DNA from: a virus
Lineage: Duplodnaviria; Heunggongvirae; Uroviricota; Caudoviricetes
DNA: 47,785 nt
Virus record (IMG/VR): IMGVR_UViG_2529292853_000006
Reading direction: 5' to 3' (one strand)
Position 1 is the first letter of the stretch, and every line of letters starts with the position of its first letter. Position numbers and translations under genes: made by a program. This document shows positions 41,275-44,064 of the stretch, piece by piece. Under the pieces are notes generated by a model. The model did no database searches. It worked only from the letters and a program-made list of their open reading frames with translations, and was not told the DNA's origin.

Positions 41275-41832
41275 ATGTCTAAATTACCAACAGGTGTCGA
41301 GATTAGAGGTAGATACATTCGCATCTGGTTCATGTTTCGAGGAAAACGATGTCGGGAAACATTAAAAGGCTGGGAGATTACAAACAGTAATATTAAAAAG
41401 GCCGGAAATTTAAGAGCGCTGATAGTTCATGAAATAAACTCCGGTGAATTTGAGTATTTAAGACGTTTTCCCCAGTCCAGCACTGGGGCAAAAATGGTGA
41501 CAACGAGAGTCATAAAAACGTTCGGAGAGCTTTGTGATATCTGGACAAAAATTAAAGAGACAGAGTTAACAACAAACACAATGAAGAAAACGAAATCACA
41601 ATTAAAAACACTCAGAATAATAATTTGTGAAAGTACCCCGATATCACATATTCGTTATAGCGATATCTTAAACTACCGGAATGAACTGCTGCATGGAGAA
41701 ACGCTTTACCTGGATAATCCAAGATCCAACAAAAAAGGAAGAACCGTGCGCACAGTTGATAACTATATCGCCCTGCTCTGTTCGCTGTTGCGTTTTGCGT
41801 ATCAGTCGGGATTTATATCAACCAAACCATTT
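41275..41832 (+). pseudogene. intR: Rac integrase IntR, 3' end truncated by IS insertion
   Basis: About 186 codons of integrase N-terminus, then the reading frame runs into an IS2 terminus (TGGATTTGCCCCTATATTTCC) at 41833. Confidence 0.8.
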
Positions 41833-42445
41833 TGGATTTGCCCCTATATTTCCAGACACCTGTTATCACTTAACCCATTACTGGCCTGCTGCCGCAGATA
41901 TTCCCGTGGCGAGCGATAACCCAGTGCACTATGCGGATGCCATTCGTTATAATGCTCGAACGCCTCTGCAAGGTTCTTTGCTGCCGTTAACCCGTCTGGT
42001 TTAGGCATGATACTGATGTAGTCACGCTTTATCGTTTTCACGAAGCTCTCTGCTATGCCGTTACTCTCCGGACTCCGCACCGCCGTGTTCTTCGGTTCAA
42101 GCCCCAACATCCGGGCAAACTGCCGTGTTTCATTAGCCCGGTAGCATGAACCATTATCCGTCAGCCACTCTACTGGAGATGCCGGAAGCTCGTTGCCGAA
42201 GCGGCGTTCCACCGCTCCCAGCATGACGTCCTGTACTGTTTCACTGTTGAAGCCGCCGGTAGTCACCGCCCAGTGCAGTGCCTCACGATCACAGCAGTCC
42301 AGCGCGAACGTGACACACAGTCTCTCTCCGTTATCACAGCAGAACTCGAACCCGTCAGAGCACCATCGTTGATTGCTTTCTTTCACGGCCACTTTGCCAG
42401 TATGTGCCCGTTTCGATGGCGGTACAGCGGTTTTTCGCTCGAGTA
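41833..42445 (-). mobile_element. IS2 fragment (3' two-thirds of insD with right terminus); inner boundary approximate
   Basis: ORF 41844..42509 matches IS2 InsD from about residue 85 to the end as recalled; insC and the other end are absent. Confidence 0.75.
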
Positions 42446-42527
42446 GGCAGCCTGGCGGCTGCGGCTTGTCATGGCCTGGAATTACCGTTATAAAAAAAGA
42501 TAATGTCATTGTCTTTCAGGTAGTTAT

Positions 42528-42893
42528 ATGGCCCGTTCAGCTAAACCCCGTAAACGCAAATCCGCACCACAAAGAAGCAAACTTCCCCGCTATGTTGTAA
42601 AACTTCATCCGGATGATTTTTTTGACGAAGAAGACGCAGAAGTTCTGCGCTTTGATAATTTTGACGATGCCGTTGAGTGCTGCGCAGACCTTAATATTCC
42701 CTTCTTTGTGGATGCGGGAAACAAAAAGCTGGTCTTCTGGTTTGTACGTGTTGATGCCGAAGGGTATCCGGAAGTCGTCCGCTGCACGGAGCGGGAGTTT
42801 GCGACCATTCTTGCCGGTATCAGCGCCGGCGGTATGTACTGCCCGGAATGTGGTACCGTTCACTGGCCGGATGGTGTAACCCCGCCCTTCTGA
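42528..42893 (+). CDS. IS91-family accessory ORF (orf121-like)
   Basis: 121 aa, the same length as IS91 ORF121; identity not verified. Confidence 0.45.
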   Translation: MARSAKPRKRKSAPQRSKLPRYVVKLHPDDFFDEEDAEVLRFDNFDDAVECCADLNIPFFVDAGNKKLVFWFVRVDAEGYPEVVRCTEREFATILAGISAGGMYCPECGTVHWPDGVTPPF

Positions 42894-42969
42894 TGCTTCC
42901 CCGTTTTGCCGATATTTTCCTGCAGGGAAACCGCTGGCTTAAAAGCAGCCGGAAGGCTCAGTACGTCCG

Positions 42970-44064
42970 GTGGTGATTGAGTCGGTGACCAAAATCATGG
43001 CCTGCGGGACCACGCTGATGGGCTACACGCAATGGTGCTGTTCGTCACCGGACTGTTGCCACACCAAAAAGGTCTGCTTCCGGTGTAAAAGCCGCTCCTG
43101 TCCGCACTGCGGAGTGAAGGCCGGCACACAGTGGATACAGTATCTGCTGAGTCTGGTCCCCGACTGCCCGTGGCAGCATATTGTGTTCACGCTTCCCTGC
43201 CAGTACTGGTCCCTGGTGTTCCACAACTGGTGGTTACTGGCAGAGATGAGCCGTATTGCAGCGGATGTGATACTGGAAATCTGCCATCAGGCAGATGTGG
43301 AGCCGGGGATATTCACGGTCATCCACACATGGGGGCGTGACCAGCAGTGGCATCCGCATATCCATTTATCGACAACTGCCGGTGGTGTGACGTCGGGCCA
43401 CACCTGGAAAAATCTTCATTTTTACGCCCGTAAGGTGATGAGCATGTGGCGTTACCGGATAACGCGGTTACTGTCCCGAAAATACCCGGAGCTGGTGATA
43501 CCGGATGCGCTGGCAGCAGAAGGAAGCAGTAAACGGGAATGGAATCGCTTCCTGGACATACACTACCGCCGCGGCTGGAATGTCAACGTATCCCGGGTGA
43601 TGGATAACGCCACGCATGTGGCGGTGTACTTTGGCTCTTACCTGAAAAAGCCGCCGGTGCCAATGAGCCGTCTGGAACACTATGCTGGTCAGGATGAAAC
43701 TGGTCTGCGTTACAACAGCCACCGCACAAAACGGGAAGAATACCTGGTGATGAGTGGTGATGAGTTCATGGAAAGGTTCTCGTGGCATGTGGCGGATAAG
43801 GGGTTCCGTATGGTGAGGTACTACGGTTTCCTGAGTCCGTCGAAACGGCGGTTACTGGAAGAGGTGGTGTACGTCATAACGGAGACGGTGAGAAAAACGG
43901 CGATGCAAATCAGGTGGAGAGGGATGTATCAGCGGTTACTGAAGGTTGACCCGCTGAAATGCATTCTGTGCGGAAGTCAGATGCGGTTTACGGGACTGAA
44001 GAGGGGCTACCGTCTGACAGCTATGATGCATAAGCCCCTGGCCCGGAAGCGGTGGTGCGGCTGA
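42970..44064 (+). CDS. IS91-family HUH transposase (possibly N-terminally incomplete)
   Basis: 364 aa; GTG start per ORF track; HUH and Y2 motifs. Confidence 0.65.
   Translation: MVIESVTKIMACGTTLMGYTQWCCSSPDCCHTKKVCFRCKSRSCPHCGVKAGTQWIQYLLSLVPDCPWQHIVFTLPCQYWSLVFHNWWLLAEMSRIAADVILEICHQADVEPGIFTVIHTWGRDQQWHPHIHLSTTAGGVTSGHTWKNLHFYARKVMSMWRYRITRLLSRKYPELVIPDALAAEGSSKREWNRFLDIHYRRGWNVNVSRVMDNATHVAVYFGSYLKKPPVPMSRLEHYAGQDETGLRYNSHRTKREEYLVMSGDEFMERFSWHVADKGFRMVRYYGFLSPSKRRLLEEVVYVITETVRKTAMQIRWRGMYQRLLKVDPLKCILCGSQMRFTGLKRGYRLTAMMHKPLARKRWCG

Follow-up and report, generated by a model that had tools for sequence, protein, structure and literature searches.

The Rac prophage of E. coli K-12 retains its integrase gene intR beside ttcA, with attL at the 5' end of ttcA, and it still excises with XisR (PMC4632033). 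The insertion sequence IS91 is recognised by a CTTG or GTTC target beside oriIS, by CTCG at terIS and by the absence of a target duplication, and an orf121 whose stop codon overlaps the tnpA start by one base is specific to IS91 itself (PMC13181058). In the window analysed here, which is the whole 47,785-bp draft contig AQAC01000127.1 (assembly GCA_000356785), a Rac prophage runs through intR into an IS2 segment and then into an IS91 element (Table 1). The first-pass annotation had described an intR frame of 186 codons, an IS2 terminus, a partial IS2 and an IS91-family element, all of which is accurate for the contig as deposited. It had also taken the nested IS2 and IS91 for a feature of the prophage, a view that we abandon: the right side of the window is ETEC plasmid DNA, and sister assemblies have a complete IS2 followed by the 3' part of intR and by ttcA.

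The window holds two kinds of DNA. Positions 1-41832 are chromosomal Rac prophage DNA, and from 36000 to 41832 they are 100% identical to many chromosomes with an intact intR. The remaining 5953 bp (41833-47785) are 99.9% identical to the closed ETEC virulence plasmids pTW14425, CP035820 and CP024244, in which the IS2 remnant and IS91 adjoin the etpB region. The join thus has a chromosomal left flank and a plasmid right flank, and the switch between them is located inside IS2, a multi-copy repeat, at 42012-42179. At its right end the contig stops within another IS, and private SNPs are found there.

Positions 41000-44400 were searched for in 5426 complete E. coli genomes, none of which has a single place covering at least 80% of this query. 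A 266-bp query across the intR/IS2 junction found no convincing match in the same 5426 genomes; the only place covering at least 80% of it, in strain YZ_2_2, is a two-piece match whose span is too short. Some apparent full-coverage matches to intR/IS2 (H46-H49) are explained by an independent IS2 insertion, at intR codon 65.

Table 1. Features of the window, with positions counted from its first nucleotide.
Feature	Position	Strand	Evidence
Rac-type prophage body	1..41057	.	Collinear with MB15 chromosome NZ_CP073984.1
xisR, excisionase, 71 aa	41058..41273	+	Pfam DUF1233 excisionase match; annotated xisR in collinear MB15 locus
intR 5' part, codons 1-186, arm-binding and core-binding (SAM-like) domains only	41275..41832	+	Alignment to MB15 intR
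Fusion ORF, 214 aa, IntR residues 1-186 plus 28 residues from IS2 end	41275..41919	+	
CATTT, IS2 target	41828..41832	.	Duplicated beyond complete IS2 in L003 and L008
IS2 right-end segment, 607 bp (608 with one ambiguous base), insD codons ~104-301	41833..42439	-	Alignment to complete IS2
168-bp stretch (IS2 offsets 180-347) with no difference between chromosomal and plasmid IS2 copies	42012..42179	.	Chromosome-to-plasmid switch inside
IS91 isoform, ~1812 bp	42440..44251	+	Pfam Y2_Tnp and Zn_Tnp_IS91; alignment to pE94-5 copy
orf121, 121 aa	42528..42893	+	
tnpA, Zn_Tnp_IS91 and Y2_Tnp domains	42893..44064	+	Pfam E-values 5e-16 and 1.1e-38
CAAG (5'-CTTG on other strand), IS91 target tetranucleotide abutting oriIS	44252..44255	.	
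hicB-hicA toxin-antitoxin pair	44291..44883	-	Pfam HicB and HicA_toxin; same genes annotated on pTW14425
Rest of plasmid block	45348..47785	.	ORFs, Pfam, 99.9% identity to pTW14425, CP035820 and CP024244

The prophage and its disrupted integrase gene

The prophage body starts at gpL and continues with genes for the head and the terminase, trkG, lysis genes and Q-like genes; a cargo block of 7.5 kb and the replication and immunity region follow, and kilR, racC, recET, ralR and rcbA are also present. Between window positions 1-41832 and MB15 (NZ_CP073984.1) we counted 16 substitutions, 0 indels and 0 new stop codons, a comparison that begins at gpL, with tail genes K, I, J, lom and the tail fibre off the contig, so that tail-tip genes are outside it. 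The last substitution, at 41085, has G in the window and T in 11 other copies; it gives a private W10G change in xisR, which is otherwise intact.

The 558 nucleotides of intR present in the window, or 186 codons, are identical to the beginning of the intact 411-aa intR of MB15. Alignment to intact intR and IS2 references places the junctions: identity to chromosomal Rac stops at 41832, the IS2 right terminus starts at 41833, where it reads TGGATTTGCCCCTATATTTCCAGACA, and IS2 homology ends at 42439/42440. The 214-aa product of the fusion frame has Pfam matches to Arm-DNA-bind_2 (residues 5-69) and SAM-like (82-139), and it lacks the catalytic Phage_integrase domain (residues 205-391 of the 411-aa IntR), which lies entirely downstream of the break. 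Neither the 3' part of intR nor ttcA was found after the IS2 segment in the window; both are present in the sister L003 and in MB15.

The same intR/IS2 junction, with exactly the same 214-aa fusion protein, is shared by 15 contigs of at least 10 assemblies, which bears out the annotated cut of intR at codon 186. Judged from these sequences, intR is truly disrupted by IS2, and its product is predicted to be inactive whether the join further to the right is real or chimeric. As the catalytic domain is downstream of the break, it is reasonable to infer that self-excision is lost, and that a Rac prophage with intR::IS2 would be unable to excise itself. It had been proposed that such a prophage is an intermediate on the path to K-12 Rac. 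This does not fit what is known of the latter, in which intR still adjoins ttcA and excision still takes place (PMC4632033), and whose decay therefore did not pass via loss of the integrase.

Other disruptions of intR are a simple IS2 insertion at codon 65 in strain Z1323HEC0010, frameshifted alleles of 199+201 aa, and IS1-bounded truncations; the 201-aa ORF, corresponding to the 3' half of intR, is widespread (492 index blocks). The IS2 at codon 186 adds to the evidence that intR has been disrupted repeatedly.

IS2 copies in the window and in sister assemblies

The IS2 segment encodes, on the minus strand, the C-terminal 198 aa of InsD followed by a stop codon, with rve and rve_3 domains. A complete 1331-bp IS2 with orfA and orfB (insC and insD) is absent from the window, where the copy, at 607-608 bp, is indeed reduced to the 3' part of insD, as had been annotated. 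Transposition of this remnant itself was rejected, given that it has no left end and no transposase N-terminus.

Sister assemblies are of the same lineage by sequence only (1 mismatch in 10.5 kb and an identical junction), which does not imply the same clone. In L003 (GCA_000356545.1), the same intR/IS2 junction is followed by a full IS2 coding for a 409-aa OrfAB, a duplication of CATTT, the 3' half of intR, ttcA, dbpA and zntB; L008 likewise spans the whole IS2 into intR. Both read ...ACCATTT, IS2 (1331 bp), CATTTGAAGGAG..., and then on as intR: a complete element with its 5-bp target duplication is present at the intR site in these two sisters. The window shows one copy of CATTT only, the contig leaving IS2 before its far side. 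Further sister contigs end inside IS2 at offsets 298-337 or 607, which are the forks of two IS2 types. The sisters therefore disagree at the join, L003 and L008 continuing into the full IS2 and intR, L006 and L009-L011 breaking at the forks, and L020 joining the plasmid block to yqiG.

Assembly GCA_000356545.1 has the simple intR::IS2, yet the same plasmid block is attached in it to a different chromosomal IS2, in yqiG. This other join lies at one end of a contig of 1.13 Mb and switches between offsets 54 and 171, unlike that of the window. It is not the K-12 yqiG::IS2I site, and its junction was found in no complete genome; it would be either a strain-specific IS2 site or another artefact.

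The first 347 nt of the window's IS2 segment are identical to the complete IS2 copies of L003, L001 and L002. SNP phasing identifies the segment as a hybrid: offsets 54, 171 and 179 have the chromosomal-type base, each of the 12 sites in the range 348-509 has the plasmid-type one, and the pattern, CCC and then PPPPPPPPPPPP, switches once. All closed plasmids, as well as three drafts of the same series, are plasmid-type throughout. At the same SNP positions, short-read and metagenome contigs with an etpB flank form non-monotonic mosaics (CPC, PCC), indicating that the region is prone to mixed consensus. A passage from chromosomal to plasmid SNPs inside 168 identical bp fits a join via the repeat, and most likely it was the assembler that made this join through IS2.

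The plasmid block and its IS91

The element that abuts the inner end of IS2, from 42440 on, is of the IS91 family, as its orf121 and HUH transposase had suggested in the first-pass annotation. With IS91 itself it shares the 121-aa orf121, the one-base overlap of the orf121 stop with the tnpA start (TGATG, 42891-42895), CTCG at terIS (42438-42441), a CAAG/GAAC target and the absence of duplication; it is a Y2 HUH rolling-circle element, with the HUH motif HPHIH at 43351 and the paired tyrosines of the Y2 motif YFGSY at 43627. Its oriIS end reads ...CCTATTGAT, directly before CAAG, and in four other plasmids this position is occupied by CAAG or GAAC, while the sequence beyond it differs. An intact copy for comparison is the IS91-family element of plasmid pE94-5, ~92% identical at the nucleotide level, which is inserted in IS2 without target duplication. 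Relative to its 395-aa transposase, a 10-bp deletion near 42943 shifts the tnpA frame in the window, putting the first 17 codons out of frame. No intact transposase reading frame, as expected of an autonomous element, was found, and the isoform is probably immobile on its own because tnpA is frameshifted.

Beyond the hicB-hicA pair, the block contains a gene for a 103-aa hypothetical protein, an IS1 whose insB is interrupted by TAG (46186-46188), IS3-family fragments, and an IS3-family element where the contig ends. The IS2/IS91 junction is found in many plasmids at 92-94% identity, and pE94-5 retains both halves of the IS2. Comparison of these copies places the insertion of IS91 into IS2 in plasmid ancestors, not in Rac. 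Two further ideas were discarded. One-ended transposition of IS91, bringing the IS2 remnant into intR, does not account for the 3.5 kb to the right of oriIS, which are also plasmid DNA, and tnpA is frameshifted. The intR flank and the flank of IS2 in pETEC_80 resemble each other over 22 nt, which is a partial, AT-rich target-site similarity and not transferred intR.

Origin of the join and comparison with known systems

In our judgement the probable explanation is a real, simple IS2 insertion in intR combined with a repeat-induced chimeric contig. A complete 1331-bp IS2 would have entered intR between nucleotides 558 and 559 (codon 186), duplicating CATTT and cutting the catalytic domain off from the N-terminal arm- and core-binding part, which would leave IntR inactive. 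The 3' half of intR, attL and ttcA would still be in place just past IS2. The strain would also harbour an ETEC virulence plasmid with an old 607-bp IS2 remnant beside etpBAC and an IS91 inserted at CAAG. As the outer 347 bp of both IS2 copies are near-identical, they would have collapsed in the short-read assembly graph, and the contig would have entered the repeat from intR to exit by the plasmid branch. Both the insertion and the chimeric join are of already known kinds, and the finding is in this respect ordinary. It nevertheless calls for caution: a draft contig passing from prophage to IS remnant to IS-rich DNA can be a chromosome-plasmid chimera, and nested-IS or 'deleted attL' histories can therefore be artefacts. 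What would remain is one ETEC-associated lineage with an otherwise undamaged long Rac prophage, the integrase of which is split by a recent and still complete IS2.

Alternatively, the join may be real, an ETEC virulence plasmid or segment of it having integrated by RecA or RecET homologous recombination between the intR IS2 and the plasmid remnant; we regard this as unlikely. The resulting Hfr-like cointegrate would have intR'-IS2(hybrid)-IS91-plasmid as its left junction and etpB-IS2(complete)-'intR-ttcA as its right one. A single crossover of this kind yields exactly the left junction of the window, and the lone switch in CCC|PPPPPPPPPPPP is what one exchange within the 168-bp identical stretch would give. 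The prophage moreover encodes its own RecET, and natural exchange of IS2 flanks is suggested by pE94-5, in which the left flank of the IS2-remnant/IS91 module differs from that of the ETEC plasmids. However, only 1 of at least 10 assemblies with the intR/IS2 junction runs on into plasmid DNA, the others breaking at the forks or continuing into the full IS2. If the yqiG join of the sister, with its other switch point, were real as well, closely related isolates would have to have undergone integration twice, independently, and both times the plasmid block is at a contig end terminating in an IS. The same sites also show the impossible-looking SNP mosaics in other short-read contigs. That an etpBAC virulence plasmid recombined via IS2 into intR, within a Rac prophage that is near-complete and encodes RecET, is slightly more doubtful still. 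If true, a region of an ETEC virulence plasmid would have been captured by the chromosome through IS2, and a virulence block would be chromosomally fixed inside a prophage no longer able to excise.

The initial proposal, in which an IS91-family element inserted or caused a deletion in situ in the IS2 of intR, with loss of attL, the intR 3' half and the remainder of IS2, and with chromosomal DNA to the right, is very improbable: the deposited contig does read so, and an insertion of IS91 into IS2, at a canonical CAAG target, did occur, but the identical IS2/IS91 junction in many plasmids at 92-94% identity must be far older than the near-identical prophage, tnpA carries its 10-bp frameshifting deletion, sister genomes keep the full IS2, the intR 3' half and ttcA, and the match of the outer IS2 to the chromosomal copy and of the inner IS2 to the plasmid copy, together with 5.95 kb on the right 99.9% identical to plasmids beside etpB, largely refutes it.

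The locus can be set against three known systems besides IS91. Like K-12 Rac, the prophage is integrated at ttcA in sister and reference genomes, and it shares the gene order xisR, rcbA, ralR, recT, recE, racC, kilR, sieB, racR, ydaS/T, plus trkG. It differs from K-12 Rac in being the long form, which includes a cargo block of 7.5 kb as well as genes for head, tail, terminase and lysis, and in having its intR split by IS2 instead of standing whole beside ttcA. With simple IS2 insertions (yqiG IS2I of K-12, codon 65 in Z1323HEC0010), the window has in common the element and its terminal sequence, but the codon-186 site is lineage-specific and the IS2 is incomplete, the sequence leaving for the plasmid copy. 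Finally, the etpB-IS2 remnant-IS91 module is present in pTW14425_123.7k, CP035820 and CP024244 (these three at 99.9% over 41833-47785), pE275a_100 and pLSN03016011A_163. These ETEC modules share the IS2/IS91 junction and orf121 with the window, and their tnpA is often annotated as frameshifted; the plasmid modules are bordered on the left by the etpB region and have plasmid-type bases at the outer three diagnostic SNPs, whereas in the window the neighbour is intR and these SNPs are chromosomal-type.

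Break in intR and origin of its two flanks

The first-pass annotation had described an integrase frame of about 186 codons entering IS2, followed by an IS91-family element, and this description of the contig is correct. The 558 nt that precede the IS2 right terminus (TGGATTTGCCCC...) are identical to the first 186 codons of the intact 411-aa intR of the Rac prophage in the E. coli MB15 chromosome (NZ_CP073984.1). The resulting 214-aa fusion has two domains of lambdoid integrases, arm-binding and SAM-like, and was found exactly in 15 contigs, which belong to at least 10 assemblies. 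As the IntR catalytic domain (residues 205-391) lies entirely downstream of the insertion, this predicted product could at best bind DNA, and loss of integrase-dependent excision may soundly be inferred.

The window is the entire draft contig AQAC01000127.1 (47,785 bp, assembly GCA_000356785.2). Positions 1-41832 are collinear with the MB15 chromosome (16 substitutions, no indel), and many E. coli chromosomes in which an intact intR is followed by ttcA match 36000-41832 at 100% identity. The remaining 5953 bp (41833-47785) match, over their full length and with 99.9% identity, closed ETEC plasmids (pTW14425_123.7k, CP035820, CP024244), where the IS2 remnant lies some 190 bp from etpB, in the etpBAC adhesin locus. 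None of 5426 complete genomes covered 41000-44400 to at least 80% at a single place; with a 266-bp junction query, the sole match of at least 80% among them, in YZ_2_2, was in two pieces and did not reproduce the junction.

Sister assemblies have the same intR/IS2 junction. In L003 (AQEP01000006.1, 568 kb), which differs from the window by 1 base across 10.5 kb upstream, it leads into a complete IS2 of 1331 bp, encoding a 409-aa OrfAB and flanked on both sides by a CATTT duplication, then into a 201-aa ORF with a Phage_integrase domain, ttcA, dbpA and zntB. Beyond IS2, this contig has 1 mismatch to MB15 in 2229 bp. A second contig, L008, also traverses the full IS2 into intR, and the others end within IS2, at offsets 90-337 or 607 from its right terminus.

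Features of the window and of the IS2 copies compared (window positions unless stated; offsets counted from the IS2 right terminus at 41833)
Feature	Position	Remarks
Cargo block	25396-31652	flanked by the DUF977/ydaW gene and the Q-like/nin genes
xisR substitution	41085	T to G, W10G
intR/IS2 fusion ORF	41275-41919	214 aa
IS2 segment	41833-42439/42440	insD on minus strand; homology 607-608 bp; last 198 InsD residues
Diagnostic IS2 sites	offsets 54, 171, 179, 348, 393, 416, 426, 432, 435, 456, 483, 485, 490, 492, 509	chromosomal IS2 vs plasmid remnant
IS91-family element	from IS2 end to 44251	orf121 + tnpA
terIS	42438-42441	CTCG
orf121	42528-42893	
orf121 stop/tnpA start	42891-42895	TGATG
tnpA		domains Zn_Tnp_IS91 and Y2_Tnp; motifs HPHIH, YFGSY
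tnpA frameshift	42893-42976 region	10-bp deletion near 42943
Beside oriIS	44252-44255	CAAG
IS1 of plasmid block	~45650-46420	TAG in insB at 46186-46188
Right-end SNPs	47466, 47610, 47667, 47689	private or mosaic
AT-rich IS2 flanks	41811-41832; L045 1780-1800; L002 5970-6000	intR; pETEC_80; etpB side

An IS2 segment of mixed type

Fifteen positions distinguish the plasmid remnant from the chromosomal IS2. On the intR flank, sister contigs are of chromosomal type at all sites reached; on the etpB flank, closed plasmids and three drafts of the same series are of plasmid type at 15/15. The window is chromosomal at the first three sites and plasmid-like at the other twelve, and the template therefore changes within 168 bp (42012-42179) where both copies are identical. 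The sister contigs break off at offset 607 or a little short of 348, exactly where the two copies diverge. With C for chromosomal and P for plasmid type, short-read and metagenome contigs on the etpB flank show CPC, PCC and similar patterns at the first three sites, which are impossible by one crossover and which bubble-popping in a collapsed repeat could yield.

A second join was found. Assembly GCA_000356545.1 has, besides the simple intR::IS2, the plasmid block (IS66, IS3-family, IS1, a 103-aa gene, hicAB, IS91, orf121 and the IS2 remnant). In AQEP01000012.1 (1,109,440-1,125,751), the block terminates a chromosomal contig of 1.13 Mb and is joined via IS2 to yqiG-ygiL-ubiK-ribB with a CPP... 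pattern; this yqiG site differs from that of K-12 yqiG::IS2I and was not found in complete genomes. In L023, an assembly of the same series, the block adjoins etpB as in closed plasmids. The right end of the window falls within an IS3-family element, and its SNPs are of the kind that a collapsed repeat would leave where a contig stops.

The SNP switch, the sister assemblies, the second join, the CPC/PCC mosaics and the IS right end favour a repeat-induced chimeric contig, which is, on this sequence evidence, the probable nature of the window. True integration of the plasmid by a single crossover predicts an identical left junction; we hold it to be rather unlikely. The simple intR::IS2 insertion is real, and so is the etpB-side IS2 remnant/IS91 module of ETEC plasmids, already well known; that the contig links the two is most probably an artefact of assembly. 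The initial observation stands, and its interpretation only in part.

The IS2/IS91 module of ETEC plasmids

The IS91-family element shows traits reported for IS91 (PMC13181058): CTCG at terIS, a one-base overlap between orf121 and tnpA, and a CTTG/GTTC target by oriIS. Compared with the intact 395-aa copy of pE94-5, the deletion in tnpA causes a frameshift that puts the first 17 codons out of frame. On several ETEC plasmids the annotation of tnpA gives a frameshift or an internal stop, and the insB frame of the IS1 is broken in closed plasmids as in the window.

Plasmid pE94-5 has the same left junction, and to the right of IS91 its IS2 resumes from offset 608 (CAAGCAACAG...); IS91 was therefore inserted just 5' of CAAG in IS2, without duplication. 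The first-pass statement that IS91 had cut the IS2 is right as history but not for Rac, the event belonging to the plasmids. Among ETEC plasmids the left side is common (etpB, IS2 remnant, IS91), and the DNA to the right of oriIS (window 44243-44255 and L041-L044) is unrelated, always after CAAG or GAAC; hicAB, pemK and an HTH gene/eatA are found there. These variable right sides suggest repeated IS91-mediated adjacent deletions or rearrangements, and we infer that the other IS2 half was lost through such rearrangements. Three independent IS2 right-end flanks (intR, pETEC_80, etpB side) have in common a ATTTATATC-A-CA-AC-like AT-rich sequence, which may reflect an IS2 target preference.

State of the prophage compared with other Rac

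The prophage is a long-form Rac, located at ttcA, and the IS2 in its int is a recent insertion. The first-pass annotation had taken all virion genes to be apparently intact; the contig covers them from gpL onward, with K, I, J, lom and the tail fibre outside it. Apart from xisR itself, the annotated genes between gpL and xisR match those of the MB15 prophage exactly or have single-residue differences, with no new stop codon. Even the MB15 prophage carries a 7.5-kb cargo block besides the pseudogenes ynaK and a tolA fragment. This block, also present in the window, encodes an MFS transporter, a gamma-glutamylcyclotransferase, a LysR regulator, a DUF2254 protein and a BCCT transporter. The xisR substitution is private: 11 other copies of the region, 9 of them in sister contigs, lack it. 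It is either a real excisionase mutation or a base error.

IS insertions and other lesions of intR are frequent: one closed genome (NZ_CP148391.1, 9276-11847) has IS2 at codon 65, and other strains (L031-L040) have split, frameshifted-looking alleles of 199 + 201 aa, or IS1-bounded truncations. The latter go with the loss of large parts of the prophage. These disruptions in other strains arose independently. The window had been proposed as an intermediate toward K-12 Rac, but, whereas its intR is split by IS2, K-12 Rac keeps intR beside ttcA and is excision-proficient (PMC4632033); the state of the window is therefore a separate decay route.
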